From the UHGV virus genome UHGV-0113213: a DNA stretch of 52,407 nt. One strand, 5' to 3'. Source of the stretch: a virus. Position 1 is the stretch's first letter; every line of letters starts with the position of its first letter. The notes under the pieces are model-generated. The model made no database searches. It was not told the DNA's origin and saw nothing but the letters and a program-made list of their open reading frames with translations. This document shows positions 23,644 through 46,071 of this stretch, piece by piece. Made by a program: the position numbers and the translations under genes.

Positions 23644-23727
23644 TTAATATTTGTTGATGATATATACGCAAGCCACAAAACTTGCGCAATATGTTAATAC
23701 TTCCAACCAGTCGAATAGCTCTTTCAT
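23644..23727 (-). CDS. hydrophobic micropeptide, array member 11 of 11 (27 aa)
   Basis: MKELFDWLEVLTYCASFVACVYIINKY. ATGA overlap with member 10. Confidence 0.55.
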   Translation of the reverse strand: MKELFDWLEVLTYCASFVACVYIINKY

Positions 23728-23867
23728 TGTTGCCCCTTGAATATATGCTTCGCTTCTCTGTAAATTAGCGCACCAGTCATTACAATCGCGTATACGCATA
23801 ACATTAACGCGACGATAAGCACGCCAGAACAAAGCAAAAACATCAGTAGATCGATAAATTCAAACAT
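23724..23867 (-). CDS. hydrophobic micropeptide, array member 10 (47 aa)
   Basis: MFEFIDLLMFLLCSGVLIVALMLCVYAIVMTGALIYREAKHIFKGQQ. GGTGAG lies 8 nt upstream. Confidence 0.6.
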   Translation of the reverse strand: MFEFIDLLMFLLCSGVLIVALMLCVYAIVMTGALIYREAKHIFKGQQ

Positions 23868-23875
23868 AATATTTC

Positions 23876-23944
23876 TCACCAGGAGAAAACAATAACAACC
23901 AACAGTGCGCTTATAGCTATAATTAAGAAATCACTATCAGACAT
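23876..23944 (-). CDS. hydrophobic micropeptide, array member 9 (22 aa)
   Basis: MSDSDFLIIAISALLVVIVFSW. The start lies inside the end of member 8. Confidence 0.5.
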   Translation of the reverse strand: MSDSDFLIIAISALLVVIVFSW

Positions 23945-24011
23945 TGATAATTACCAAGATAATAAATAACGCAACTGTACACACGATCAACATAATATCA
24001 ATAGCGTTCAT
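23937..24011 (-). CDS. hydrophobic micropeptide, array member 8 (24 aa)
   Basis: MNAIDIMLIVCTVALFIILVIINV. GGTGAG SD. Confidence 0.55.
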   Translation of the reverse strand: MNAIDIMLIVCTVALFIILVIINV

Positions 24012-24019
24012 TCGCTCAC

Positions 24020-24088
24020 CTACTGAGTCAGTGCTGTCATGGTAAGAACAATCGCGACAATCAGGAAAAAGAAATCAAGCCATTTCAT
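24020..24088 (-). CDS. hydrophobic micropeptide, array member 7 (22 aa)
   Basis: MKWLDFFFLIVAIVLTMTALTQ. AGGAG SD 6 nt upstream. Confidence 0.6.
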   Translation of the reverse strand: MKWLDFFFLIVAIVLTMTALTQ

Positions 24089-24103
24089 TTTAACTCCTGA
24101 GAT

Positions 24104-24175
24104 TCAGTTAACACTTAAAAGCACCGCAACGATGACAATCACTATAATCATGCAAAAGAAGTCTGCTTCTCTCAT
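24104..24175 (-). CDS. hydrophobic micropeptide, array member 6 (23 aa)
   Basis: MREADFFCMIIVIVIVAVLLSVN. ATGA overlap with member 5. Confidence 0.55.
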   Translation of the reverse strand: MREADFFCMIIVIVIVAVLLSVN

Positions 24176-24252
24176 CTTTTTAGCCCTCGATAAAAATCAA
24201 CAGCAATGACTACAACTACAGCCACCAGCAATAGCATTTCGTATGCGTTCAT
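24172..24252 (-). CDS. hydrophobic micropeptide, array member 5 (26 aa)
   Basis: MNAYEMLLLVAVVVVIAVDFYRGLKR. ATGA overlap with member 4. Confidence 0.55.
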   Translation of the reverse strand: MNAYEMLLLVAVVVVIAVDFYRGLKR

Positions 24253-24347
24253 TTGATGCTACCCATAACAAGGCCGATGATAATAATTATGGCGACAATG
24301 CCTAACATCATTCCGAACATAATCGCCATCAGTTCGAATATATCCAT
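24249..24347 (-). CDS. hydrophobic micropeptide, array member 4 (32 aa)
   Basis: MDIFELMAIMFGMMLGIVAIIIIIGLVMGSIK. 3-nt gap after member 3. Confidence 0.55.
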   Translation of the reverse strand: MDIFELMAIMFGMMLGIVAIIIIIGLVMGSIK

Positions 24348-24350
24348 GCT

Positions 24351-24425
24351 TCAGCTTTCAATGAATATCATGATCGCCAGCCATACGGCGACGCATAAGG
24401 AAAGGATGATTAGCGGGTCAATCAT
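24351..24425 (-). CDS. hydrophobic micropeptide, array member 3 (24 aa)
   Basis: MIDPLIILSLCVAVWLAIMIFIES. GGTGGGGTGA SD. Confidence 0.55.
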   Translation of the reverse strand: MIDPLIILSLCVAVWLAIMIFIES

Positions 24426-24429
24426 ATTT

Positions 24430-24540
24430 TCACCCCACCAAATACTTGATATATACGTTTATCAGCGCAACTATAATAGAACCAGCAAGAAACACAGAAA
24501 CGCCGATTAATACGGCAATGATGTAAGCGGCCATAATCAT
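24430..24540 (-). CDS. hydrophobic micropeptide, array member 2 (36 aa)
   Basis: MIMAAYIIAVLIGVSVFLAGSIIVALINVYIKYLVG. TAATG overlap with member 1. Confidence 0.55.
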   Translation of the reverse strand: MIMAAYIIAVLIGVSVFLAGSIIVALINVYIKYLVG

Positions 24541-24602
24541 TACTTCCACAACAAAAACAATATTACAGCCGCCGCCATTCCGATAAATAAATAAGCGTCC
24601 AT
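24540..24602 (-). CDS. hydrophobic micropeptide, array member 1 (20 aa)
   Basis: MDAYLFIGMAAAVILFLLWK. The ATG lies 2 nt after the stop of the HExxH gene. Confidence 0.5.
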   Translation of the reverse strand: MDAYLFIGMAAAVILFLLWK

Positions 24603-25526: not shown

Positions 25527-26015
25527 TTATTCTTTACGCAAGCACTGCGTTTTGATGTAGTCCTGTAGGCCAGTGATCTGTGCGTCTTTTATTTTTAGTT
25601 GTTCTCTGAGGGATAGATAAGCCGATTTAGCGTCGGCAGTAGGTTCGCAGGTGGCTCCATCAATGCGGCTGGAGGTTCCGGTATTACTGTCTGTTCGCAT
25701 TGGCACGGCGTTGACGCGCAACCGGATAGTACCGTTATCAATGCCAGTGCGCAGATCGGCAATGTCAGATCTGATAGCTTTAATCTCATCGTGATACCTC
25801 TTATCAAGTTTTGACAGTTCGGCGTTTCGCTCCTTCATCTGCTGAATAGTGTTACTTGCTGTCTTCAGTGCGCCTTTCGTCACCGTGACTTCTTCCTGTA
25901 ACCTTGTCGCCTCACCCTGGTAATAACACGTTACGGCGGTTAGTCCGGCAATAATGCAAACAACAGCGGCGATAATTAACGCCTTCACCTTGTCCACGTT
26001 TCCCCCCATTCGCAA
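25527..26015 (-). CDS. Rz: i-spanin (Rz-like)
   Basis: 162 aa. N-terminal TM ([17 protein letters not shown]), coiled-coil periplasmic domain. Overlaps the endolysin end. Confidence 0.8.
25595..25789 (-). CDS. Rz1: o-spanin (Rz1-like), embedded in the Rz frame
   Basis: 64 aa from the internal Met: [23 protein letters not shown]|C lipobox, Pro-rich mature part. Fully nested in a different frame of the i-spanin gene. Confidence 0.75.
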   Translation of the reverse strand: MRLKLSDLTLPICALALITVLSGCASTPCQCEQTVIPEPPAALMEPPANLLPTLNRLIYPSENN

Positions 26016-26476
26016 ACGGCATATTCAACATCTCGGCGGTTTACCAGGCCTTGCCACTTCTTACCACCAGCGTATACCCAGCGTTTAAGCTGTGCGCACG
26101 CCTCTGATTTCTTACCGTCATTGAGTAGCTTTAATAAGGTTGATGTTTTGAAGTTGGTTGCGCCTACGTTATAGGCGAATGAATAAAGCGCAGCGCGGGT
26201 AAAATCTGATATTTCGACTTTGATATATGGGTTAATCGCTTTTGCGGTTTTGTGGAGATCTTTGTTTAACAAAGTATCGCATTCTGATTGCGTGTAAGTC
26301 TTACCAAGCATGATGTCTTTTCCGGTGTGACCATAGCAAACAGTCCATACACCGATAACATCACGATAAGGATCGTACTCCACGCCCTCTAATGGTTTAA
26401 CCATCACAGCCGCAATAGCGATCGCCCCACCAGCCGCCGCAGCAATAATTTTATTCTTCAGCGATTGGCTAATCAT
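25985..26476 (-). CDS. R: SAR endolysin (T4-lysozyme-fold muramidase)
   Basis: 163 aa from the ATG at 26476, which follows the holin stop. Weakly hydrophobic Gly/Ala-rich N-terminus [17 protein letters not shown]. Catalytic E-x8-D-x5-T ([16 protein letters not shown]). Confidence 0.85.
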
Positions 26477-26477
26477 G

Positions 26478-26678
26478 TTACTTATTCCCCATTCGCGCGT
26501 CGTGTTCCTCTTGCGCTCGCTTGTTCTCCTGTGATTTGAAGTAATAGTTAACGGCAAATGTGCCTATGGTTGATAAGATACCCACAAAGACAGCAATATC
26601 ATTAATGGTTATCGCGCCGAAAAAAGCAGTTACGGCCCCGGTCACATACGCGCACGCCTCCCGTATTCTGTCGAACAT
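26478..26678 (-). CDS. S: holin (two-TM, pinholin-like)
   Basis: 66 aa, two hydrophobic helices, charged C-terminus ([15 protein letters not shown]). Directly precedes the SAR endolysin. Confidence 0.75.
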
Positions 26679-26783: not shown

Positions 26784-26966
26784 CTACAAATCACTAACTT
26801 TCACCAAATCGCCATTATCAAGCCAGATTTTAATTGTTTCTCGCGTCGTCTTGATGATTGGCGCTACCCACTCACCATCGCTAACGCAAACGCGAATATC
26901 ACCACCCTCTATGCGATAAAACATCTTGTCGATTAGTGTTACGGCGTATATACCATCTTCAATCAT
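26784..26966 (-). CDS. hypothetical small protein
   Basis: 60 aa, last ORF of the accessory block. Start overlaps the upstream stop (ATGA). Confidence 0.5.
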   Translation of the reverse strand: MIEDGIYAVTLIDKMFYRIEGGDIRVCVSDGEWVAPIIKTTRETIKIWLDNGDLVKVSDL

Positions 26967-27157
26967 TTCTTGCGCTCCTTAATAACCCTTTTGATCTGCG
27001 CGCGCGCGGCATCTACGAGAGCAATAAACACCGCTACAGGCCAGAAAGGAATCTCAAGACCACCACGATCGAGATCATTAGATTTGATAAAACAAGACAT
27101 CAGGATAGCGCCAGCAATATAAAGGAGAAACACAGCAATGATAAGACATTCAATCAT
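26963..27157 (-). CDS. small membrane protein
   Basis: 64 aa. Two hydrophobic segments (MIECLIIAVFLLYIAGAILMSCF; IPFWPVAVFIALV), basic tail. Confidence 0.55.
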   Translation of the reverse strand: MIECLIIAVFLLYIAGAILMSCFIKSNDLDRGGLEIPFWPVAVFIALVDAARAQIKRVIKERKK

Positions 27158-27290
27158 CCTCTTTCTCCCCGCCTAAATATTGATATATTTCTTCAGCATT
27201 TTCCCCGCGCTCAAAACAATAATGTTCAAACATGCGCCAATTTTCACTAAGAAACATAACAATAAAATTGTTAACGTATTCGTCATCCAT
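27150..27290 (-). CDS. hypothetical acidic small protein
   Basis: 46 aa (below the cutoff): MDDEYVNNFIVMFLSENWRMFEHYCFERGENAEEIYQYLGGEKEDD. Fills the gap exactly and overlaps the next start. Confidence 0.5.
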   Translation of the reverse strand: MDDEYVNNFIVMFLSENWRMFEHYCFERGENAEEIYQYLGGEKEDD

Positions 27291-36225: not shown

Positions 36226-36525
36226 TTAGCTCTTCCTCCCGATACGCTAATATCTGTTCGGCCTTAAGCGCGTTATAAGCAATAAGGTCTATAAGAGTGT
36301 CGAGCGGATCAGTTCCATTAGCGAGAATAGCCCCTAAACGCGCTTCCTTGAGGCAAATCATTAGATCCCATACATCAAGTGGGGTTAAATTCGCATTCAT
36401 CTTAGCGTTGAAAATAGCCGCTATTTTTGGCGCTGATTTTTCTTCTTTTCGATCGTATCCGTTTTGCTCCCTCTTGCCTCGATAGTTTCAGCCGCAAGTC
36501 TCAGCAATTCAGCCGCTTTATTCAT
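36206..36525 (-). pseudogene. frameshifted small gene (G-x-R-x3-Y-G ... K-x-x-R ... D-x3-D-x3-Y family, DUF6378-like)
   Basis: Frame A starts at 36525 (MNKAAELLRLAAETIEARGSKTDT...) and stops at 36421. Frame B is open from 36487 (..RGKREQNGYDRKEEKSAPKIAAIFNAKMNANLTPLDVWDLMICLKEARL...) and runs to 36206. Together they read as one protein. Confidence 0.5.
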
Positions 36526-37057
36526 TTTCTGCACCTCTTGCATATAGCTCTTTACGTGTTATCTGCGTGAAAATACATTCATGTCTGCATCGTGGATGCC
36601 AGATCAGGAACAAGCTCCCCTTATTGTTCCCGCTTACTGGTTTCCCTGTTGCAGCATTGATAAACGCCAGCCGCCCGCGCGTGATTAATCGGCATTCGTT
36701 TGCCGTCTCCACGCCGTTCATAAACCAGCTAACAGAAATGTCAGCGGGCAATAACATTACGCATCCGATATGATTTCGGCTGTGTTCAAGCGCCGCTTTA
36801 TCAACGAATGGCCCCGGATTAGAATATGGCGGATTCATCCAGACATACTCACCAGGCATCGCCACCGCTCCCCACGGATAATGGAGCGTGTCCATTTCTT
36901 CGGTTATATATCGCGGTATTAATGCGTTTGCCTTGTTTGCCGCCACATCCGCGACGAACTCGAATTCTCGATCCATTCCTCTAAAAACGGGTTTTGGCGT
37001 TTGCCATAAGTCCTTTATTTCTTTCGGCGTATGGCTGCCGCCGTAATCATTTTTCAT
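36518..37057 (-). CDS. dam: phage N6-adenine DNA methyltransferase (Dam family)
   Basis: 179 aa. W.TP..VF......F.F..DVAA...NA, NPPYS, LLPA..S..WF. Confidence 0.85.
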   Translation of the reverse strand: MKNDYGGSHTPKEIKDLWQTPKPVFRGMDREFEFVADVAANKANALIPRYITEEMDTLHYPWGAVAMPGEYVWMNPPYSNPGPFVDKAALEHSRNHIGCVMLLPADISVSWFMNGVETANECRLITRGRLAFINAATGKPVSGNNKGSLFLIWHPRCRHECIFTQITRKELYARGAENE

Positions 37058-37066
37058 TACGCCCCC

Positions 37067-37555
37067 TTAGAAATAATCCTGATCTGTTCCCCAGCGGTTA
37101 TTCAGATACCCCACCAACCACACAAAACGCTCAATACTGATTAGCGGGGCGACCTTGCGATAATGCTTATCTAATATCAGCCGCGTGGCTTTATCGCTGT
37201 AGCCGTTCTTCTCTACCTCCGCTTTGCAGGCCGAAAGCGCGGCGCGGGCGGCAGTCTTTACGGCGTTAAATTGCGGCTCTGACATATTGAATAAGGCCAT
37301 AGGATCACCATGTGTCAGTCCAATCCGGCGCGGCAGTCCAGCAAAAACCAATGAATGCGCTAACAGCCAATAAAGCGCGGGCTGCAAAAAGAATATTCCC
37401 AATGTCGTTAAATTCAGGAAGCGACCACGTAATAAACATAGCCCCAGCATAATAACACCGATAACAGTCATGGCCGCCAGGAAAACAAAAAGCGTAGCCA
37501 AAAGCCACGCCCCCAACCAGTTAAAAAAGCTCTTAAGCATTTTAAACGTCCTCAA
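37067..37555 (-). CDS. membrane protein
   Basis: 162 aa, three N-terminal TM helices and a soluble C-terminal domain. Confidence 0.55.
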   Translation of the reverse strand: MRTFKMLKSFFNWLGAWLLATLFVFLAAMTVIGVIMLGLCLLRGRFLNLTTLGIFFLQPALYWLLAHSLVFAGLPRRIGLTHGDPMALFNMSEPQFNAVKTAARAALSACKAEVEKNGYSDKATRLILDKHYRKVAPLISIERFVWLVGYLNNRWGTDQDYF

Positions 37556-37929: not shown

Positions 37930-37932
37930 GCC

Positions 37933-38025
37933 TCACCTCATATGGTATTCAATAAACCACCTGATAAACAGACATAAGGCAATAAAACCCCAGCAACAGC
38001 ACATATAAAACAATGTGTCGTCCAT
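37933..38025 (-). CDS. hydrophobic micropeptide (30 aa)
   Basis: MDDTLFYMCCCWGFIALCLFIRWFIEYHMR. The ATG lies 2 nt after the upstream stop, and the stop lies 3 nt before the next ATG. Confidence 0.5.
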   Translation of the reverse strand: MDDTLFYMCCCWGFIALCLFIRWFIEYHMR

Positions 38026-38027
38026 AA

Positions 38028-38246
38028 TTAAGCCTCAATAACACCGTAATCGAACGTGCCTAAATACCGTTCGATACTTACAACCTCAATACCATCAATG
38101 CACCGTTTCCACACAGACACCTGGCTTTCATTTTCTCTGAAGTGCATATTAGAAAGCACTTCATCGGCTGGGTAGCCTTTCCCGGCGACGTAGGCATCGT
38201 GACCTACGCCACCTTCTACGCAATAAAGCATCAATTCGCGTTCCAT
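38028..38246 (-). CDS. hypothetical protein
   Basis: 72 aa from the ATG at 38246 (GGAGG SD). The track ORF's longer N-terminus would cover the promoter module. Confidence 0.5.
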   Translation of the reverse strand: MERELMLYCVEGGVGHDAYVAGKGYPADEVLSNMHFRENESQVSVWKRCIDGIEVVSIERYLGTFDYGVIEA

Positions 38247-38280
38247 CTTGTTTCCTCCGTGCCGTAAACCTCTTAATTTC

Positions 38281-38341
38281 AGTTTACAAAACGGATATGC
38301 GATCGCAATACAAAATGTATATTTATGTGATCGCAATCACG
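38281..38341 (-). promoter_or_regulatory. internal promoter module with a CRP-like site
   Basis: Minus strand: CGTGATTGCGATCACA (38326-38341), 25 nt from the centre to -35 TTGCGA (38303-38308), a 16-nt spacer ending CCGTTTTG, and -10 TAAACT (38281-38286). Confidence 0.55.
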
Positions 38342-38344
38342 CTG

Positions 38345-38965
38345 TTAATGCAGTACACGTTTTTCCTGTTCATGAATAGGCTGTGCACTTTTCATTGCTT
38401 CGTTAAGCGTAGCTATAGCCGCCTGTACGCCGAATTCATTAGCGCGCATATCATCGCCAACAAATTTTCCGTAAAGCACCGGAATAAACGCCTTAACGTT
38501 CACTTCTTCGTGTCCTTCCTCAATAAATTTCTGCAACATCTTAACCTCAAAGACCTTTTTCATCAGGCCGCGCATAGAATGCAGTGAAACACTGCCAAGC
38601 AGATCCTTGTTCAACGGGAAAATAACAGCACTTCCGAACGCGAGCGGATCAACATCTTCCGGCACTGGTGCGCGTCCGAATTCCTCCTCCATGCGTCTTA
38701 CGAAAGTGAGGCAGAACACATAACGCGCTACCGATGTTTTTTCTTCCATGCTTAAAGACACGTAATCGCGGATTGATGCATTCATCATAATATCGACAAT
38801 CTGTAGCGCCAGATTTAAGTCACTGTCATACACTCCTGCTTCCATATCTTTTAAAACTTCGTGATAATCCTTAGTTACCACTTCGTGAAAGCTCGCGTCC
38901 TCTGTGTAGCGAGTAATTAACATGCCTTCGCTGCCGAGTGAATAAGCCGTTTTGATATTGTTCAT
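38345..38965 (-). CDS. hypothetical protein
   Basis: 206 aa from the ATG at 38965, just after the upstream stop at 38977. Confidence 0.55.
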   Translation of the reverse strand: MNNIKTAYSLGSEGMLITRYTEDASFHEVVTKDYHEVLKDMEAGVYDSDLNLALQIVDIMMNASIRDYVSLSMEEKTSVARYVFCLTFVRRMEEEFGRAPVPEDVDPLAFGSAVIFPLNKDLLGSVSLHSMRGLMKKVFEVKMLQKFIEEGHEEVNVKAFIPVLYGKFVGDDMRANEFGVQAAIATLNEAMKSAQPIHEQEKRVLH

Positions 38966-38976
38966 AATATTTACCC

Positions 38977-39309
38977 TTATAGTGGATGATGCCATTTCAT
39001 TTCAGTTTCTGAATTAAACGGGTTTCCTTCGCTTGAAAGGAATAAATCACGCTCCCGTTTCAGTTCTTCCGGGCTTATTTCTATTTCATCAATCTGACCG
39101 AACGATCCAGGCATCATCCGTTTTAAATCGGATAGCGGACGCATAAGGCCGCAGCCACGTAACAGCATGTCTATAGCGAATTGTCTACGCCCTGCTGCAT
39201 CATTAAAGCGACGCGCCCACGGGACACACACAATCCGGCGTTCGAACTCAATAAATAGTGATAGCTTGTTAGTCTGACTATCATAGGCCTTATGTAATTT
39301 AATTTTCAT
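38977..39309 (-). CDS. hypothetical protein
   Basis: 110 aa, operon member. Confidence 0.55.
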   Translation of the reverse strand: MKIKLHKAYDSQTNKLSLFIEFERRIVCVPWARRFNDAAGRRQFAIDMLLRGCGLMRPLSDLKRMMPGSFGQIDEIEISPEELKRERDLFLSSEGNPFNSETEMKWHHPL

Positions 39310-39490
39310 TTAACACCTCAACATATTGTTCAAGATGCCATCTCCCCACCTCATCATCTTCCTCATCAAATAATATTACTTGACCACCAGGCAAAAAAGA
39401 AAAGGCAGCTATAATAAACTCATAGCCATACCAAGTGCGGATCTTCTCACCGCCTTTCAGGTGTTTTACTTTCACTAATTTTATAGCCAT
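39299..39490 (-). CDS. hypothetical small protein
   Basis: 63 aa. Contains ILFDEEDDEVGRWHL (the D-x-x-G-x-W motif). Confidence 0.5.
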   Translation of the reverse strand: MAIKLVKVKHLKGGEKIRTWYGYEFIIAAFSFLPGGQVILFDEEDDEVGRWHLEQYVEVLNEN

Positions 39491-39753
39491 ACGCCGTACA
39501 TCCCATTCAGCCCGGCAAACAATTTCCGCCAGTGGTCTTCAACATAATCCCGGAACGGCTTAACGCGAACATTGCGGGCCTTCAGTTCAATCTTGTCAAA
39601 GAAACGAGGCTCAATAATCGTTCCATCCAGATATTTAACCAGGATCGGGCGCTCAAGATCGTTATATGTCTTGTTCAGCACAACCAGACCAGGGTCGCTA
39701 CGATATTCTGGCAAAACAACAAGATCGCCATCTTTTGCATTCCAAGTAACCAT
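39481..39753 (-). CDS. hypothetical protein
   Basis: 90 aa from the ATG at 39753 (the track uses the GTG at 39756). Confidence 0.5.
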   Translation of the reverse strand: MVTWNAKDGDLVVLPEYRSDPGLVVLNKTYNDLERPILVKYLDGTIIEPRFFDKIELKARNVRVKPFRDYVEDHWRKLFAGLNGMYGVWL

Positions 39754-39872
39754 CACATCGCCCCTTTACAAATAAAGCTAATCACCGCAGCAAGTGCGCC
39801 GCAAAACACAATCGTAAACAGGAAACAAATAACGCAAAAAGCGACCCTTACAATATTCTTGCAAACCTTCAT
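39753..39872 (-). CDS. hydrophobic Cys-rich micropeptide (39 aa)
   Basis: MKVCKNIVRVAFCVICFLFTIVFCGALAAVISFICKGAM. GGGGTGAG SD. The stop overlaps the next ATG. Confidence 0.5.
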   Translation of the reverse strand: MKVCKNIVRVAFCVICFLFTIVFCGALAAVISFICKGAM

Positions 39873-39875
39873 AAC

Positions 39876-39995
39876 TCACCCCAACAATGCAACAATTAAT
39901 TCAGCAATAAAAACGGCGACATAAAAAGAAGCTGTGATATAAATCACCCCAATAACGAAGGCGGCGGCTAATGCCGCAATTTTTACCATGCTCAT
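39876..39995 (-). CDS. hydrophobic micropeptide (39 aa)
   Basis: MSMVKIAALAAAFVIGVIYITASFYVAVFIAELIVALLG. ATGA overlap with the upstream gene. Confidence 0.5.
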   Translation of the reverse strand: MSMVKIAALAAAFVIGVIYITASFYVAVFIAELIVALLG

Positions 39996-40231
39996 TTATC
40001 AGCCTCCGCAATGAACTTATCAAGCCATTTGTTATTGGCCAGGCGTTCGGCATCTTCGCCAAATGTTTTACGTTCGCTTAATTCCTTGCGCGTTGGTATA
40101 GGCCATTTATCGTGCCACCCGGCAGACGTTTCGAACTCATACAGGCCGCCGTTAAAAGTGACATAGTCATCAGATGAGTCAGGCAGCTCTTTATCAACAT
40201 CTTTTTCTTCGATCATGATTTGATACCTCAT
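39992..40231 (-). CDS. hypothetical acidic protein
   Basis: 79 aa, ATGA-coupled. Confidence 0.5.
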   Translation of the reverse strand: MRYQIMIEEKDVDKELPDSSDDYVTFNGGLYEFETSAGWHDKWPIPTRKELSERKTFGEDAERLANNKWLDKFIAEADK

Positions 40232-40509
40232 TAATCGTTAATAACCTGGCCCATACGCCCGCGATATTTGCGCATACGTGGATCGACATATTCAGGCCAG
40301 TGCATATCCGGTTTTCTTTGCAGCGGATAAAAACTTGCCTGCCAGTTGTCGAACCATATTTGTTTTGCGTACAGGTCACTAAATCTTTTCGCCATCCGTT
40401 CCGCTGCCGTGCCGCATAAAAAAAGCCCGCGATCGATTTGATCACGGGCTTCTTTTAATACTTGCTCTTTTGTTCGTGGCGGTGGTGGCGGTTTTAGATA
40501 ATCAACCAT
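40231..40509 (-). CDS. hypothetical protein
   Basis: 92 aa, Pro-rich N-terminus, directly after ssb. Confidence 0.5.
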   Translation of the reverse strand: MVDYLKPPPPPRTKEQVLKEARDQIDRGLFLCGTAAERMAKRFSDLYAKQIWFDNWQASFYPLQRKPDMHWPEYVDPRMRKYRGRMGQVIND

Positions 40510-40524
40510 CGCTAACCTATTGGA

Positions 40525-40929
40525 TCAAAACGGGATATCGTCATCAAAGTCCATCGGCGGATTATTCCCGTTATTATTCTGCTGCTGCGGAGGCGCTTTC
40601 TGCTGCTGGCCTTGTTGGTTAACGTTCATGAATTCAAATTCGTTAACCGCCACTTCTACCGCCGTTCCCTTCGTGCCGTCGTTCCGGTCATATTGCCGAA
40701 CATCCAGGCGACCGCTTACCACTATTTTTCCACCCTTGCGGATATGTGGCGCTAATTTTTCCGCACGCTCACCAAATACCAGGCAAGTGACCCACATTGT
40801 CCGCTTATTATCGCCGTAGCCATTCGTTACAGCTAACGGAAAACTACCAATCGCTTTCCCGTTTTGTGTGTAGCGAACCTCCATATCATTACCGATATTC
40901 CCGCCCAGCGTGATTGAATTTAAACTCAT
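40525..40929 (-). CDS. ssb: single-stranded DNA-binding protein
   Basis: 134 aa. OB-fold N-terminus, Gln/Pro/Asn-rich linker, canonical acidic tail DFDDDIPF. Confidence 0.92.
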   Translation of the reverse strand: MSLNSITLGGNIGNDMEVRYTQNGKAIGSFPLAVTNGYGDNKRTMWVTCLVFGERAEKLAPHIRKGGKIVVSGRLDVRQYDRNDGTKGTAVEVAVNEFEFMNVNQQGQQQKAPPQQQNNNGNNPPMDFDDDIPF

Positions 40930-41573
40930 TAACCCATCTCCCCGTTAAGCTCTGCTACCCGGATGTCATAAACATCTTTTGCCTTGATTCGATGTTCCGA
41001 TCCTTCCGGTAGTAATTTCCAGCATTTGCCAAATATTTCACGCAGCTTGTTAGCGTCCTGCGCTTTCGCTGCTGCATCACAGAAACGTGCTAATACTTCA
41101 TCAGGATTTGGCGGCGCTTTCTGCTGCTGTGGTTGTTGTTTTGGTGGGTTTTTCTGCTGGCGAGGCTGCTGGCCTGTCTGCTTAGCGTATGCGTCAGTAT
41201 CAGGATCTCGCGCATCATCAATGCAGAATAAACCGTTCAAAGCGTATTTTCGCGCGTAACTTGATGTCGCACCTGTTAGCTGGCTTGCGTCCATTCCCTT
41301 CTTGCTTTCTTCTTCCCTGGCGTAAGCCGTTACCGCTATTTCGTCTTCACCGTCGCTTAGCGTCGCCGTAGCTTTCACATAATAGCGATTGCCGATCAGG
41401 ACAATTTCATCGCTTACAGTCAGCGTAATACTTTGAAGCAGTGGTTTAACCGCCTCTAAAATATCCTCCGCCGACCTGTAATTATATCCACCAAAATTAT
41501 TACGCTGATTTTTCGGCGCGTTCAGCGTTTGCTGAATCGTCCATAGCTTTTTATGTAACTCTGTTTTCACCAT
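40929..41573 (-). CDS. erf: Erf-family single-strand annealing recombinase
   Basis: 214 aa. Long stretches match my recollection of P22 Erf (LNAPKNQ.N.FG.Y.YRS.EDILE.VKPLL, SDEIVLIG.RYYVKATAT..DGE, KKGMDA.Q.TGATSSYARKY.LNGLF.IDDA.D.D). Confidence 0.9.
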   Translation of the reverse strand: MVKTELHKKLWTIQQTLNAPKNQRNNFGGYNYRSAEDILEAVKPLLQSITLTVSDEIVLIGNRYYVKATATLSDGEDEIAVTAYAREEESKKGMDASQLTGATSSYARKYALNGLFCIDDARDPDTDAYAKQTGQQPRQQKNPPKQQPQQQKAPPNPDEVLARFCDAAAKAQDANKLREIFGKCWKLLPEGSEHRIKAKDVYDIRVAELNGEMG

Positions 41574-41689
41574 TTAATCTCCCGTGCTGTTAACACTATG
41601 TATAAGGCTTTATTCGCGGCGCTCCACATTTCGGCATCGTGAAGCATTTCCGCTACTGCCAGTTTGAATTGAAGCGCCTGAATAACCAT
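41567..41689 (-). CDS. hypothetical small protein upstream of erf
   Basis: 40 aa: MVIQALQFKLAVAEMLHDAEMWSAANKALYIVLTAREIKW. GGAG SD. The stop overlaps the erf start. Confidence 0.45.
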   Translation of the reverse strand: MVIQALQFKLAVAEMLHDAEMWSAANKALYIVLTAREIKW

Positions 41690-41719
41690 AATGTCATCTC
41701 CGGATGTTTACATTTTGTA

Positions 41720-42010
41720 TTAATGGTAGCGGACTTTATCCAGGGGTTTTTCCCCTAAATGGCGTGGTTGCGTTGCGTGGTAGTAGCTGCCGCTTTCATT
41801 TTCCGTATACCATTTTACTGATCCTTTGCGACGTTCTTTAATGCTATTTGGTTTGCATCTTTCCTCGTTTGCAAATCGAATAGCTTTATCCACATTGTCT
41901 GTTTTATTGATTGCAGGTGATGATTTTCTTTCGTTTTCTCTTTTTATCCTTCTGCGTTCCCTGGCATTCATTTTGCTATCACATTTACCATATATAATTG
42001 TAACGCTCAT
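41720..42010 (-). CDS. N: N-like transcription antiterminator (arginine-rich motif)
   Basis: 96 aa, first gene after PL. Residues 14-29, MNARERRRIKRENERK, resemble the ARMs of lambda N (MDAQTRRRERRAEKQ) and P22 N. boxA/boxB-like elements are present (see 43322-43354). Confidence 0.6.
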   Translation of the reverse strand: MSVTIIYGKCDSKMNARERRRIKRENERKSSPAINKTDNVDKAIRFANEERCKPNSIKERRKGSVKWYTENESGSYYHATQPRHLGEKPLDKVRYH

Positions 42011-42358
42011 AATCTGATCTCCGTATATCCTTGATGATACTTAATAAAAAATCATCTTCGTTAATTGCCGCACTTCCAGCGGCTGACCAGATTGTTAATG
42101 AGCGGCTTAACATCTTTCAACTAATCCCGCAATCATCGCCGTTCCCGGCGTGACCTTGCTCACTCCAAGCAAGCTGACTCGTCGCCTTGCGTGCGGTTTC
42201 GTGGGGGATGTAACGCTTTAAACACCCCATGCGCCTTGTTATCAGTGCCGCTTTCGGTCCCCCATCGGGGAGTTACTCCACGGTTGACAAGGTGTTAAGC
42301 CTGATTTTTAAAGTGCCAGGAAGTTGCTTTTGTTACCTGCGCCCTTCCTTTGACTCGC

Positions 42359-42401
42359 AATATACGCCCCGTAAAACATCGAGTCAATCCATTTTGTATA
42401 C
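42359..42401 (-). promoter_or_regulatory. PL-like early leftward promoter with an abutting phage motif
   Basis: Minus strand: GTATACAAAATGG (42389-42401), then -35 TTGACT (42382-42387), a 17-nt spacer and -10 TATATT (42359-42364). Confidence 0.65.
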
Positions 42402-42477
42402 TTTTTTAAAATATTTTATATGCCATTGATATTTAAATAATAAATAACGTTTTCTGTTTACGTTTTGGTGTTTTCCA

Positions 42478-42504
42478 GGCAAAGAAAAGCCGCCATTCGG
42501 CGGC
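42478..42504 (-). terminator. rho-independent terminator after the repressor gene
   Basis: GCCGCC(42489-42494) ATTC GGCGGC(42499-42504), followed on the minus strand by TTTTCTTT. Confidence 0.75.
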
Positions 42505-42510
42505 TAATGT

Positions 42511-43158
42511 TTATGGCAGGTTTACGATCTTCGCATCAACCACCACGCCTATAATTTTTGATTCTGGATTCATAGGGATTGGCGGATACAGCGGATTGAG
42601 CGAACGTAAAAGCCTTTGACCTCCATCAATAATCAACTGTTTAAACGTCGGTATCTGCCCTTCCTCAAGCTGGGCTATAACCAGTTTGCCGTCAATAGCT
42701 GGCGCGTGCGGGTCCACAAGTATCATCGTCCCCGCCGGGATGCTCAACCCCTGCGGCGCGTTCATTGATTCACCTTTGGCAACCAGCCAGTAACTGTCAT
42801 CTGAACAAATAACGCTAGTCGTAACGTGTCGTAATGCTGAACGCCTTGCGTCATCCATATTGTTTACTGTGTCCTTCCAGTCAATAACCGGGTAACTACC
42901 TAAATCACGCGGCGGCACGGCCTGAAGTGTATTAGAAACAGAATCATCAATGACCATGCCATCATGTGTAACAGTAAACTGCCGACGACCAAGCTCGCGC
43001 ATAATCCGCGCAATATCTTCAAGATTTGGCTCTCGGCGACCGTTCAGCCAGTGTGACAGGCCGCCTTTAGTTATCCCCATACGATCCGCGAGTGAATCCT
43101 GGCTCATGCCCTGCGCCCGCATGAGCTGCTTTGCTAAGTCATACCATTTTGTTTTCAT
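42511..43158 (-). CDS. cI: CI-type prophage repressor (HTH + S24 LexA-like peptidase)
   Basis: 215 aa. N-terminal HTH (SQDSLADRMGITKGGLSHWLNGRREP). C-terminal autocleavage domain with GESM (Ser) and a downstream Lys (FKQL). Confidence 0.88.
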   Translation of the reverse strand: MKTKWYDLAKQLMRAQGMSQDSLADRMGITKGGLSHWLNGRREPNLEDIARIMRELGRRQFTVTHDGMVIDDSVSNTLQAVPPRDLGSYPVIDWKDTVNNMDDARRSALRHVTTSVICSDDSYWLVAKGESMNAPQGLSIPAGTMILVDPHAPAIDGKLVIAQLEEGQIPTFKQLIIDGGQRLLRSLNPLYPPIPMNPESKIIGVVVDAKIVNLP

Positions 43159-43217
43159 GTCGCTACCCTATAACCTCAAAAAGTTTGATGCAAGTCACAA
43201 AACGTGTATTTTAAGCC

Positions 43218-43245
43218 TTGATCTTAAAATTCCATTTTGTAAACT
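43218..43245 (+). promoter_or_regulatory. PR-like early rightward promoter overlapped by the phage motif
   Basis: -35 TTGATC (43218-43223), a 16-nt spacer ending CCATTTTG, -10 TAAACT (43240-43245). An alternative is TTGATG (43185)-16-TATTTT (43207). Exact motif CCATTTTGTAAAC at 43232-43244. Confidence 0.5.
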
Positions 43246-43321
43246 TGCAGACAAGGTAAGGCCATACTTGCAAAGACGCAAGGAAAAAGATAACGGAAGG
43301 CACAAAAAGGCACTTACCTTA

Positions 43322-43354
43322 TGCTCTTTAAAAATCCGGTGTCGCTGCGAAGCG
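43322..43354 (+). promoter_or_regulatory. nutR-like site: boxA plus a boxB hairpin
   Basis: TGCTCTTTAAAAA (43322-43334) against the boxA consensus (C/T)GCTCTTTAACAA. 8 nt later, CGCT-GCGA-AGCG (43343-43354): a 4-bp stem with a GNRA loop. Confidence 0.55.
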
Positions 43355-43463
43355 AAAAACAAATATCACGCAACGGCGGGATCTGTTGAGCGGTCAGTCA
43401 CTGCTATCTAATGCTAATGGGATGCCCGCCCGCGCGTTCACTCTAACCATAGGAGAAAATGCG

Positions 43464-43730
43464 ATGAGTATAAACATGATTAGTAAAGCATGGAACGTAA
43501 AACTTAATAGCCCGATTCAAAAACTTGTCTTAATGGCTCTGGCTGAAAAGGCAGATAACAAAGGACGGGTACATGATGCATCACGCAAAGAAGTAGCCGC
43601 AATGTGTGAACTTCCTGTTCATACGGTACATGATGCCTTCGCCGCGTTAATGGATAAAGGATTTGTTTGTCGTCTTGATGCATTCAGTGATGTCTATGTA
43701 GTGATGTTGCCGGGGGGGGATGATCTATGA
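43464..43730 (+). CDS. winged-helix/HTH protein (HTH_36-like), first gene of the rightward operon
   Basis: 88 aa from the ATG at 43464 (AGGAG SD). AWNVKLNSPIQKLVLMALAEKADNKGRV...S..EVAAMCELPVHTVHDAFAAL..KGFV. Confidence 0.6.
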   Translation: MSINMISKAWNVKLNSPIQKLVLMALAEKADNKGRVHDASRKEVAAMCELPVHTVHDAFAALMDKGFVCRLDAFSDVYVVMLPGGDDL

Positions 43731-44773
43731 AGTGGTTTAAGCATGACAGCGATGCGAACCGCGATGAAAAACTTCAAAACGTTTTGTTAGATTATGGCCT
43801 GGAAGGGTACGGGCTTTATTGGTATTGCCTCGAACTAATAACTTATGACGTAGATCAGCACAATCTGAATTTTGACCTACGACATGACGCGAGAATCATT
43901 GCGCGAAACGTCGGATCGACTGAAAAACGTATAGAAGAAATGATGAAATACTTCATCGAAATTGGTTTGTTTGAATGTTCTCAAGGCCACATAACTTGTT
44001 TAAAGTTATTGAAAAGGCTTGATCAATCAATGACTTCTAAAAGCGCGTACAGGGCCGCCATAAACACAGCTAAGGAGCAATTAAAATTAGAAAAGTTAAT
44101 CAATCCAACACAAAAAGGTCATGATAGGGTCATGACCGGGTCAGGAAAGGGTCATGAATTAGAAGTAGAAGAAGAAAGAGAAAAAGATATATACACTTCG
44201 TGTATTGTCGAAAATGAACAAAAAATGTTCAATCGGGATGGCGTAAACGAAGCGGCATTGCGTTGTCTTTCCTTCTACAACGACAAGGCAGGATGCAAAT
44301 GTCGTGATGCGAAGCCATTCATAGAACTACTGACAGAAACAAAAACACGTAAAGCATATACTGAGGAAGAAATCACATTAGTAATCGAGTGGGCTTTAAC
44401 GCAATGGCGTAGCCGTGGTGGAACACCTAAGCCTATCAACATTTGCCGGGTAACTAAATTTGATGGGTATCTGGCTGATGCTGAACAATGGCGCAAACTG
44501 TCAGCCACTGCAAACGCTGCCGATGTGGTGGAAGCATTTAACAGCACGTTTGACGGTCTGTTACCACATGCCGAACTGGATCGGGATCTTGAACGTAAGA
44601 TCTATGCGTTCACTGACTACCTGAAAGACAAAAGCATCACTGGCTTTATTGCTTACTTTGAGGCGTTCAAAAACACGGCTTCAGATTTTTACTTCGGCAA
44701 TGGCTTTACTGCGACACTGGATTTTCTACTTAAACCAAAAACGCTACGTGATACACGATGTGGCGCTCTTTGA
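43727..44773 (+). CDS. replisome organiser / replication initiator (DUF4373-like N-terminus)
   Basis: 348 aa. MKWFKHDSDANRDEKL..LL..YGLEGYGLYWYCLELI. Contains an internal iteron array. Precedes the helicase module. Confidence 0.65.
   Translation: MKWFKHDSDANRDEKLQNVLLDYGLEGYGLYWYCLELITYDVDQHNLNFDLRHDARIIARNVGSTEKRIEEMMKYFIEIGLFECSQGHITCLKLLKRLDQSMTSKSAYRAAINTAKEQLKLEKLINPTQKGHDRVMTGSGKGHELEVEEEREKDIYTSCIVENEQKMFNRDGVNEAALRCLSFYNDKAGCKCRDAKPFIELLTETKTRKAYTEEEITLVIEWALTQWRSRGGTPKPINICRVTKFDGYLADAEQWRKLSATANAADVVEAFNSTFDGLLPHAELDRDLERKIYAFTDYLKDKSITGFIAYFEAFKNTASDFYFGNGFTATLDFLLKPKTLRDTRCGAL
44117..44160 (+). repeat. candidate replication origin iterons inside the initiator gene
   Basis: Four direct 11-bp units, GGTCATGATAG GGTCATGACCG GGTCAGGAAAG GGTCATGAATT (one helical turn apart), followed by a purine/AT-rich tract at 44161-44200. 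Confidence 0.6.
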
Positions 44774-44905
44774 CCAATCACGATCCGCAAAAATCCAAAA
44801 TTACCCACAAACAACCTCACCAGCTAGCTAAATCGCATGTGGTGCTACACTTGCTTACCTTTTTGCGATTAGCTCGTTATAGAGCGTTACAGAGAGGATT
44901 TTAAA

Positions 44906-45007
44906 ATGGACGGTAAACACGTTTTCGCCCTGGCTTTTGCCATCGCTGCGGCAATCGCTGTTAACGTCGCCTTGTTCGGCGGATTGTATCTGCTAGTTAA
45001 TCCATAA
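44906..45007 (+). CDS. hydrophobic micropeptide (33 aa)
   Basis: MDGKHVFALAFAIAAAIAVNVALFGGLYLLVNP. GAGAGG lies 10 nt upstream. Confidence 0.45.
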   Translation: MDGKHVFALAFAIAAAIAVNVALFGGLYLLVNP

Positions 45008-45147
45008 CTACCCTTCTACCTTAAAAATCGAAAATTAGCCACATGATTGCGCTTCTGGCGCAAAAAAGACACTGCAACCTTACAAGTGGGTTACGCGGTG
45101 GGTTTTTGCGTTGTAGCGCGTCTGAGGCGTTTTAAGGAGTTGGATCG

Positions 45148-46071
45148 ATGCGCAAGTTAACACATGATGAACAGGTTGCGGCTATCGCTAAGGTTAATCA
45201 TGATGTCGAAGTGCTTGGGGAAATTGTCAATAACAGGACAAAAGTATCCTGCCGCTGCAAGGTTTGCAGTCACGAATGGTCGGCTAGACCTTACAATCTT
45301 AAAAGCGGTTACGGCTGCCCGAAATGCGCCGGAAAGATGAAATTATCACACGAAGAACAGGTTGCCGCTATCGAGAAGGTTAATTCTGATGTCGAAGTGA
45401 TTGGCGAAATAATAAACGGCGATACAAAAGCATTATGCCGCTGCAAAGTTTGTAATCACGAATGGTCGGCTAAACCTAACAACCTAAAAAACGGGCGCGG
45501 CTGCCCGAAATGTAAAGGTTTAAAAATCGCACAAAGACGAACATTATCACACGAAGAACATTTATCCGCTATCACTAAGGTAAATCATGATATTGAAGTA
45601 TTGGGAGAAATAATAAACGATAGGACAAAAGTATTATGTCGATGCAAGGTTTGTGATCATAAGTGGTCGCCTAGACCTTATGCTATTAAAAGCGGGCAAG
45701 GCTGCCCGAAATGTGCGAAACACGGTTTTTTGTCACACAATTTCGGCAAACTTTACATCATGGTTGATGATCCTGAAGTGCCTACACAAATGAAAATCGG
45801 CGTAAGCGTTAATGAGAACAAGCGAAGAAATCGGGTATTAAAAAGCGCACATAAATCAGGCGTTAGAATCCCTGATTTATGTGTCGTGAAAACGTTAGAA
45901 GGTCCAACCGAAAATATCCATGAATTAGAAAGCACGATGCATAAATATTTCAGCAATTATAAAATTAACTTTCCTGTAAAATTTGATGGCAGTAATGAGT
46001 TTTTCTATTACAGGCCGGAAGTATTCGACATGGTAGAAGAAGCATATAAAGAGATTGTTTGCTGTCAATGA
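45148..46071 (+). CDS. triple zinc-ribbon repeat protein with a C-terminal T5orf172 (GIY-YIG-like) domain
   Basis: 307 aa. Three repeats of about 65 aa (LSHEEQVAAI.KVN.DVEV.GEI.N..TK..CRCKVC.HEWSA.P.NLK.G.GCPKC.G). The C-terminus KLYIMVDDP...KIGVS.N...R...L........P.L.....EGP.ENIHELESTMHKYF...K......GSNEFFY is T5orf172-like (recalled). Confidence 0.6.
   Translation: MRKLTHDEQVAAIAKVNHDVEVLGEIVNNRTKVSCRCKVCSHEWSARPYNLKSGYGCPKCAGKMKLSHEEQVAAIEKVNSDVEVIGEIINGDTKALCRCKVCNHEWSAKPNNLKNGRGCPKCKGLKIAQRRTLSHEEHLSAITKVNHDIEVLGEIINDRTKVLCRCKVCDHKWSPRPYAIKSGQGCPKCAKHGFLSHNFGKLYIMVDDPEVPTQMKIGVSVNENKRRNRVLKSAHKSGVRIPDLCVVKTLEGPTENIHELESTMHKYFSNYKINFPVKFDGSNEFFYYRPEVFDMVEEAYKEIVCCQ

Follow-up and report, generated by a model that had tools for sequence, protein, structure and literature searches.

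Four conserved genes for predicted single-helix membrane micro-proteins in the early operons of an mEpimmI-group temperate coliphage

Results

Four small open reading frames in the early regions

The DNA analysed here is the UHGV virus genome UHGV-0113213, a stretch of 52,407 nucleotides (nt) that is called the window throughout. Judged by its sequence it is a temperate coliphage of the mEpimmI (mEp021) group; the 9-kb region around the genes described below is 85-91% identical to phages of this group, and the matched phages are mEp515, mEp021, mEp010, mEp013, mEp044, mEp554 and MagusPhagus. Four small open reading frames (ORFs), named A to D, are found in its early regions. ORFs A, B and C are situated inside a long minus-strand early operon and ORF D follows the replication gene in a plus-strand operon. 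The four are very probably protein-coding genes under frame-specific purifying selection, and the sequence comparisons argue with the same high confidence that their products are single-pass membrane micro-proteins. The ORFs and their Shine-Dalgarno (SD)-like motifs, with lengths in amino acids (aa) and the predicted transmembrane (TM) helices, are as follows.

37933..38025, minus strand: ORF A, 30 aa, MDDTLFYMCCCWGFIALCLFIRWFIEYHMR, one TM helix at about residues 5-25
38033..38036, minus strand: SD-like motif GAGG of A, kept in 42 of 43 genomes
39753..39872, minus strand: ORF B, 39 aa, MKVCKNIVRVAFCVICFLFTIVFCGALAAVISFICKGAM, one TM helix and a basic N-terminus
39875..39882, minus strand: SD-like motif GGGGTGAG of B, overlapping the stop codon of C, kept in 46 of 46 genomes
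39876..39995, minus strand: ORF C, 39 aa, MSMVKIAALAAAFVIGVIYITASFYVAVFIAELIVALLG, one long hydrophobic helix
40003..40007, minus strand: SD-like motif GGAGG of C, kept in 45 of 45 genomes and situated inside the 79-aa gene upstream, at its 3' end
44892..44898, plus strand: SD-like motif GAGAGGA of D, kept in 46 of 48 genomes
44906..45007, plus strand: ORF D, 33 aa, MDGKHVFALAFAIAAAIAVNVALFGGLYLLVNP, one TM helix, standing alone

An earlier, sequence-only reading of this DNA had given the same coordinates, lengths and sequences, and these were confirmed. It had counted seven cysteines in B; the number is five (C4, C13, C16, C24 and C35), of which C13, C16 and C24 are conserved. All four ORFs start with ATG and have the SD-like motif 6-10 nt upstream. 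The start codon of D is changed to ATA in three genomes, where the ORF instead opens at a TTG two codons upstream.

The description of all four as wedged exactly between neighbouring genes is accurate for A, B and C and does not apply to D. The upstream gene and C overlap by ATGA in 45 of 45 loci, and the gap from C to B is 3 nt in the window and 2-9 nt in 44 of 45 loci. B overlaps the downstream gene by 1 nt (TGATG) in 36 loci and by 4 nt (GTGA) in nine. A is separated by 2 nt from the upstream gene and by 3 nt from the downstream 64-aa gene, an arrangement kept in 38 of 41 loci (the downstream gap is 4 nt in mEp013). D, on the other hand, is flanked by non-coding spacers of about 132 nt upstream and about 140 nt downstream.

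Chance expectation, frame conservation and selection

A strict scan of the whole 52-kb window, requiring an ATG, an SD-like motif at -16 to -4, a length of 30-45 aa and a 17-residue Kyte-Doolittle window of at least 2.2, returned A to D and nothing else. The number expected by chance, estimated from 100 dinucleotide-preserving shuffles, was 0.13 +/- 0.34 with a maximum of 1.

Orthologous loci were taken from seven sequenced phages, eight E. coli prophages and IMG/VR contigs anchored on neighbouring genes, giving 24-32 distinct DNA sequences per gene with 73-91% DNA identity. Conservation of the frames in relatives, on which the sequence-only reading had staked its case for real micro-protein genes, holds in about 45 phages and prophages. 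All four ORFs are intact in seven sequenced relatives, in eight prophages and in 30-41 IMG/VR contigs, and length changes among relatives involve whole codons only. A homologue of A is present in 44 of the 45 loci covering its slot and is intact in 43 of these 44; it is truncated in locus L025, and in L011 its place is taken by another ORF, of 60 aa and with a hydrophobic stretch. All 46 loci have an intact B and 45 of the 46 an intact C, the start being lost in L022. D was found in 48 loci, corresponding to 32 unique DNA sequences, and its frame is uninterrupted in every one of them. Among 43 mEpimmI-like IMG/VR loci, 41 have D, the exceptions being one contig that ends before the slot and L085, which has another gene there.

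The ratio of nonsynonymous to synonymous polymorphism (pN/pS), a descriptive value without a formal test since it was pooled pairwise over related, non-independent sequences, was 0.20 in frame versus 0.78 and 2.34 off frame for A, 0.40 versus 0.82 and 1.13 for B, 0.31 versus 0.97 and 1.41 for C, and 0.18 versus 2.09 and 1.53 for D; the 90-aa gene adjoining B, used as a control, had a pN/pS of 0.23. When the four ORFs of the first seven genomes were taken together, the third-position excess had P = 5e-6. As a negative control, the 99 nt just upstream of the SD-like motif of D lacked stop codons in no more than 13, 2 and 4 of 34 distinct sequences in the three frames. Despite the pooling of pN/pS, the contrast between in-frame and off-frame values and between ORF and spacer is unambiguous at the sequence level.

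The ORFs also behave as units in rearrangements. In the strain STEC308 the insertion of a KilA-N gene falls exactly at the junction of B and C and disrupts neither of them, and recombination joints coincide with the borders of A. Published proteomics of the group covers virion proteins only (PMC11893012).

A terminator-like hairpin at 39961-39977 (minus strand) is located in C, where it is built from GCN alanine codons, and corresponds to TERM_2 of the mEp021 record. The interpretation of C as this terminator was rejected; the geometry of the hairpin differs among relatives, the alanine-rich peptide pattern is kept, and the T-tract is weak.

Membrane character and sequence features

The estimated membrane insertion energy, calculated as Hessa-scale sums with the values of Hessa et al. 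2005, was -2.6 kcal/mol for A, -4.0 for B, -1.3 for C and -1.3 for D, versus +5.5 to +17.5 kcal/mol for non-hydrophobic micro-ORFs of the same operon. AlphaFold2, applied to B and C, gave one continuous helix for each: residues 4-38 of B with a predicted local distance difference test (pLDDT) score of 87.5, and residues 3-38 of C with a pLDDT of 96.5. The four proteins consist of little more than a hydrophobic alpha-helix with a length sufficient to cross the inner membrane, where they would be expected to reside. The hydrophobic character is retained even where the sequences drift.

The charge distribution suggests an orientation for two of the proteins. A has an acidic N-terminus (MDD) and a basic C-terminus (RW...HMR), which predicts N-out/C-in, and the N-terminal basic residues of B (K2, K5 and R9) predict N-in/C-out.

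In A, the invariant residues M8, C11, W12, G13, A16, L19, F20, R22, W23, I25 and E26 are gathered on one helix face, and the conservation moment is maximal at 100 degrees per residue (P = 0.0012). This one-sided conservation suggests a specific contact. D is almost invariant, with a stripe of small residues (A8, A12 and A16), an Asn in mid-helix (Asn20), the pair Gly25-Gly26 and a C-terminal Asn-Pro.

Family relationships and a D-like gene in an unrelated contig

The sequence-only reading had placed A to D in the same class as a tandem array of hydrophobic micro-ORFs in the window. That array, which was checked briefly, is located at 23724-24602 on the minus strand, between a 194-aa gene and terS, and consists of about ten ORFs of 20-47 aa. 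In 40 related contigs it mostly has 5-11 members; orthologues can be recognised, the copy number varies, and two of the members (r4 and r5) appear paralogous (z = 5.7). The likeness of A to D to the array stands as regards composition and architecture, and does not extend to homology. None was detected among A to D or between them and the array (the highest z among 54 pairwise comparisons was 4.4), and hhalign, applied to two representative pairs of profiles, B against C and A against D, gave a probability of about 0.1%. Helices this short carry little signal, so that a distant common origin of A to D and the array is conceivable. On the present sequences A to D are best described as four unrelated, lineage-restricted families that share a class and no demonstrable family.

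One public record labels a variant of A as DUF2615, a label that a Pfam scan did not reproduce. The B family comprises 71 clusters at 90% identity with lengths of 37-48 aa, 69 of them 37-40 aa, and all members are from E. coli or phage-sized contigs. Pattern scans of IMG/VR with A and D rendered mEpimmI-type contigs only.

D was found in three 50%-identity clusters among 1.84 billion representatives. One of these clusters is a 33-aa peptide that is 64% identical and keeps K4, N20, FGG and LVNP. The gene for it was located, with an SD of its own, in an unrelated 16.6-kb phage-like contig (L224; ENA ERZ1767623 NODE_808), where it is followed by hairpins and a canonical terminator in a sequence unrelated to that downstream of D in the mEpimmI phages. 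Its presence there indicates that D is autonomous and transferable, with a value that depends neither on the mEpimmI replication module nor on the downstream RNA.

Positions 1-6102 of L224 hold 18 tiny same-strand genes, each with a strong SD of the AAGAGGAAA type. Besides the D-like gene, the contig has hydrophobic micro-ORFs of 33 and 38 aa and a 30-aa ORF whose tail is hydrophobic, and displays a weak nucleotide similarity to rV5-like phages (about 70% over a few hundred bases). A conserved pair made up of a protein of about 70 aa and a TM micro-ORF, common to L224 and the mEpimmI phages, was considered because of the same 2-nt gap and similar C-termini, and found no support, as BLASTP detected no homology; the 72-aa family upstream of A is confined to the mEpimmI lineage.

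Annotation status

The claim that standard annotation misses these genes is true of some annotations and not of others. The original mEp021 record lists none of A to D, and the Prokaryotic Genome Annotation Pipeline (PGAP) leaves gaps at A, C and the 39-aa alleles of B; of the four genes it calls B alone, in prophages with 40-aa alleles. The RefSeq limit for ab initio prediction is 40 aa (PMC11188072), and the omissions by PGAP fit this limit. On the other hand, GenBank records annotated with PHANOTATE list hypothetical proteins at all four positions, and MagusPhagus lists A to C as hypothetical proteins in the stretch examined. Public protein collections contain the exact peptides from hundreds of contigs, under the label of hypothetical or putative membrane protein. 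A to D are not mentioned in the paper that defines the group or in its supplements (PMC11893012).

PHANOTATE also calls ORFs of 37-41 aa between the replication gene and D in mEp515, mEp010, mEp013, mEp044 and mEp554. These are not conserved and are probably false positives, judging from the sequence comparison. PHANOTATE-style calls in this region thus mix true and false micro-genes, and comparative tests are needed gene by gene.

Operon setting

The mEpimmI group, described in 2025, consists of Nus-dependent, non-lambdoid siphoviruses that are prevalent in the gut, with Gp17 as a lambda-N-like antiterminator (PMC11893012). Among 5,426 complete E. coli genomes, 35 have a matching prophage, and that of strain M1/5 is the closest, with 98.8% identity over the 2.6-kb region from A to C. 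The main features around the four genes are the following.

36518-37057, minus strand: Dam-type methylase gene of the early operon, preceded by many small genes
40231-40509, minus strand: abc2, early operon
40525-40929, minus strand: ssb, early operon
40929-41573, minus strand: erf, early operon
41720-42010, minus strand: N-like antiterminator gene, the first gene of the long early operon
42387-42359, minus strand: strong promoter-like site, which together with a terminator-like hairpin follows the CI-like gene
42511-43158, minus strand: CI-like repressor gene
43727-44773, plus strand: replication gene of the divergent plus-strand operon

A consensus scan found no promoter-like site belonging to A to D themselves, which makes their expression in a repressed prophage unlikely.

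Genes and elements next to A to D

Downstream of A, the TGA stop of A, a GGC codon (37930-37932) and the ATG of the 64-aa gene are all in one frame. A public 96-aa variant, P0015 on four contigs, has Trp in the place of the stop and fuses A with the 64-aa gene. A functional pair of A and this gene was nevertheless rejected, because identical A alleles are found beside partners that are about 40% or about 90% identical (Spearman -0.04). A instead co-varies with the upstream 72-aa gene (rho 0.78), possibly through linkage alone. Divergent mEpimmI members (L159 at 1913-2011, L161 and L162) have an extra 32-aa ORF (MWLIDLILGCWLFALVGFVCYFAWEEGKHNGR) between the 72-aa gene and A, and a 60-aa ORF (MTNFERNHKSK...) is present in L011 (110-292) and L159 (1499-1681) and is located in RM9245 where A is missing. 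The stretch around A appears to be a hotspot for small membrane-protein genes.

Further along the operon, at 37067-37555 (minus strand), a 162-aa ORF represents a 78-aa two-TM gene fused to a homologue of ipe, the 'inducer of pleiotropic effects' of mEp021. The cause is the length of a G tract near 37443-37446, which has four G in the window, where the shifted frame is open and joins ipe; L122 has five G and two separate genes, and MagusPhagus has six G and split ORFs. The difference in tract length might reflect a sequencing error, phase variation or a frameshift site.

The 90-aa gene directly downstream of B (39481-39753, minus strand) is named 'toxin-antitoxin system toxin subunit' by PGAP in many prophages and 'putative toxin-antitoxin system subunit' in the mEp021 record. 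This name has no support in Pfam, NCBIfam or PADLOC, the sole match being PHROG 28396 of unknown function.

The spacer upstream of D (44774-44905) is conserved in sequence and folds moderately well (z = -2.3). A 48-aa ORF at 44758-44904 (plus strand) was considered as a fifth micro-gene and rejected, since it is not conserved and relatives have stops in every frame. After D there is a 140-nt element (45008-45147, plus strand) that is conserved across mEpimmI genomes and folds with -49 kcal/mol in the window (z = -3.6). It has a hairpin, GCGCY-TCT-GRCGC, with apparent compensatory changes, and its consensus fold is weak. The idea that the hairpin is a repeated nut site was rejected because the window has a single copy of the motif. 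The first gene after D (45148-46071, plus strand) encodes three treble-clef zinc-ribbon/CapR-like repeats and a T5orf172 (GIY-YIG-like) domain; it has a weak match to the PADLOC candidate PDC-S57, and its slot is variable between relatives.

Lysis region

The sequence-only reading counted a 64-aa two-TM ORF among the phage's very small membrane proteins. The relevant features are the following.

25527-26015: Rz-like spanin
25985-26557: endolysin
26963-27157, minus strand: 64-aa two-TM ORF with a highly basic C-terminus, upstream of endolysin and spanin

The ORF is indeed small with two TM segments, and its position upstream of the endolysin and the Rz-like spanin indicates that it is probably the holin. 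Its matches are confined to PHROGs of unknown function. Another hydrophobic ORF, of 37 aa and with an SD-like motif, is found at 27173-27286. With about ten array members in the window, the proposed tally of about 16 small membrane proteins is plausible.

Discussion

Proposed role in early lytic development

Transcription of A to C would start at the early promoter and proceed under Gp17 antitermination, and their translation is probably coupled to that of the adjoining genes, as indicated by the ATGA and TGATG overlaps, the gaps of 2-9 nt and the SD motifs inside the preceding gene. D, in the replication operon, would rely on an SD of its own for translation. The four proteins would accordingly be made early in lytic growth or after induction, and not from a promoter of their own in the lysogen. 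Each helix might then insert in the inner membrane and pack there with a larger membrane protein, of the host or of the phage, or with a copy of itself, and this packing would alter the activity of the bound membrane protein during early lytic development.

Expression timing, membrane location and helix-helix action are deduced here from position and analogy. The partner-binding mechanism by helix-helix contact is therefore put forward tentatively, as an analogy that falls short of being probable, and it draws its support from the one-sided conservation of A and from the polar and small-residue motifs of D. The statement as a whole, four early genes for membrane micro-proteins with a partner-modulating action, is considered somewhat probable.

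Several observations weigh against it. Periodicity of conservation at 100 degrees was not significant for B, C or D. C evolves fast, with 43-54% identity to relatives and a swap from Lys to Glu at position 32, a drift that by sequence fits general hydrophobicity better than a precise interface. Searches with A to D in Pfam, PHROGs, NCBIfam, PADLOC, PDB and Rfam rendered no match above noise, so that the mechanism rests on analogy, and the pN/pS values are descriptive as noted above. The genes are also defective or replaced at times (A in L025 and L011, C in L022 and D in L085), which makes them dispensable accessory genes.

Alternative explanations

Membrane-active toxins or viroporin-like peptides, which would self-assemble, depolarise the inner membrane and thereby shut down the host or tune lysis, are the alternative that survives best, and it is still considered unlikely. 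The size and composition of A to D match those of type I toxins and small holin-like proteins. A stripe of small residues, a mid-helix Asn and a GG pair drive self-association of TM helices, and D has all three in A8/A12/A16, Asn20 and Gly25-Gly26. The same operon moreover encodes other membrane-active proteins, namely the Ipe homologue and a two-TM protein, and overexpression of Ipe leads to vesiculation and cell death (PMC11893012). However, A to D are part of polycistronic operons with translational coupling and are not stand-alone loci. No promoter-like site was seen on the opposite strand near them in the consensus scan, which is weak evidence, and no antisense or small RNA family in Rfam matched nearby. 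They are far from the lysis cassette (25.5-27.2 kb), have a single TM helix and lack a dual-start motif, and the one-sided conservation of A suggests a specific contact.

An improbable alternative is that the proteins exclude superinfecting phages by preventing the entry of their DNA, as T4 Imm, P22 SieA and HK97 gp15 do, or act as anti-defence factors against a membrane-bound system of the host. Phage exclusion factors are often small inner-membrane proteins, and A to D are accessory, lineage-restricted and mosaic, as genes in an arms race would be. That a D-like gene is shared with an unrelated contig of apparently lytic type might point in the same direction. Exclusion is nevertheless difficult to reconcile with the apparent lack of an own promoter, which makes expression from a repressed prophage unlikely. 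The demonstrated exclusion factor of the group is instead the lipoprotein Lpp (PMC11893012), no PADLOC matches were found for A to D, and the strong purifying selection on D and A (pN/pS about 0.2) does not resemble the diversification of an arms race.

It is less probable still that the ORFs act in cis and encode peptides without function, their translation serving ribosome coupling or, for D, a leader with Pro before the stop that controls the downstream RNA. The overlaps and gaps are a classic coupling geometry. A C-terminal Pro slows termination, and D ends in an invariant Asn-Pro-stop ahead of a conserved 140-nt spacer that folds well; in L224, hairpins and a terminator follow the D-like gene. 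However, coupling needs no particular peptide, yet amino-acid constraint spans the whole length of the ORFs (pN/pS 0.18-0.40) and hydrophobicity is kept even under sequence drift. L224 and the mEpimmI phages have unrelated RNA after the D or D-like gene, while the two peptides share 64% identity and their length. Covariation lends little support to the consensus fold of the spacer, and the hairpin inside C is reshaped between relatives with the peptide pattern kept.

That A to D are not genes at all, being chance ORFs in T-rich spacers, over-predictions like the PHANOTATE calls between the replication gene and D or, for C, the terminator TERM_2 of mEp021 (which coincides with codons 7-12 of C), can hardly be maintained when four ORFs were observed versus 0.13 expected, when the frames are intact across 24-32 distinct sequences each with a constraint comparable to that of a neighbouring gene and with conserved SD-like motifs, and when the B family alone forms 71 clusters that are nearly all 37-40 aa.

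Implications

Small single-helix membrane proteins are under-annotated, and the early micro-protein genes described here can with high confidence be regarded as four real ones. They belong to phages that are frequent in the human gut and can be handled in a K-12 host. The class has already been recognised and the ORFs have already been deposited as hypothetical proteins; the result is solid but unsurprising. With 30-39 codons and defined conserved residues, A to D are cheap and concrete targets for studies of phage micro-protein function. The best candidates for having a specific partner are A, with its conserved helix face, and D, which is nearly invariant, has an Asn in mid-helix and is found in an unrelated contig.

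As a speculation that is unlikely to hold in full, mEpimmI phages may devote more than a tenth of their genes to single-helix micro-proteins, each specifically inhibiting or hijacking a different host inner-membrane machine. The array of about ten, A to D and the extra ORFs in divergent relatives would in that case make up an arsenal of intramembrane effectors hidden from standard annotation. Candidate targets would be transporters, the divisome, FtsH and membrane-bound defence, and D would be a module exchanged between temperate and lytic-type phages.

Comparison with known systems

The comparison of D with leader peptides rendered differences, in that the whole peptide is conserved and the downstream sequence in L224 is unrelated. 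Holins, pinholins and antiholins are, like A to D, small TM proteins encoded by phages. Unlike them, A to D are located 11-18 kb from the lysis cassette in early operons, have one TM helix in 30-39 aa, and have neither a dual start nor a highly charged C-terminal tail.

Type I toxins (Hok, Ldr, TisB, Ibs, ShoB and DinQ) also consist of a hydrophobic single helix of 18-50 aa, and some are carried on prophages (PMC12648545). A to D differ from them in that no antisense RNA signal, no opposite-strand promoter and no homology were found. Nor do they form stand-alone units as expected of a type I toxin, A to C being internal cistrons and D following the replication gene in the same operon.

Within the window, the array at 23724-24602 resembles A to D in size class, in the single hydrophobic helix and in tight packing, and A and D share with it a short acidic head (M-D-...). 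A to D differ from the array in being 30-39 aa instead of mostly 20-26, single-copy and part of early operons; the array is situated between the lysis genes and terS.

Small transmembrane gene families in phage genomes have reportedly been catalogued by Fremin et al. 2022 (Cell Rep 39:110984), at the level of predictions. A to D belong to the same class as the catalogued small ORFs, being conserved, below the annotation cut-off, hydrophobic or TM-enriched and under purifying selection. The catalogues are predictions at large, while A to D are four specific families in defined operons of the mEpimmI group. Hydrophobic intergenic microproteins have also been described in Enterobacteriaceae (PMC11188072), likewise as catalogued predictions, and are of this class too.

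Bacterial small membrane-protein regulators, which have been reviewed (PMC12648545), include AcrZ (49 aa), MgrB (47 aa), MgtS (31 aa), PmrR (29 aa), KdpF (29 aa) and CydX (37 aa). A to D differ from these in being encoded by a phage, in early lytic operons and coupled to phage genes, and no sequence similarity was found. Like A to D, the regulators have about 30-50 residues, one TM helix and almost no soluble domain, and they are lineage-restricted and often unannotated. They act by packing against a larger membrane protein (PMC12648545), and they are the best functional analogy for the four proteins described here.

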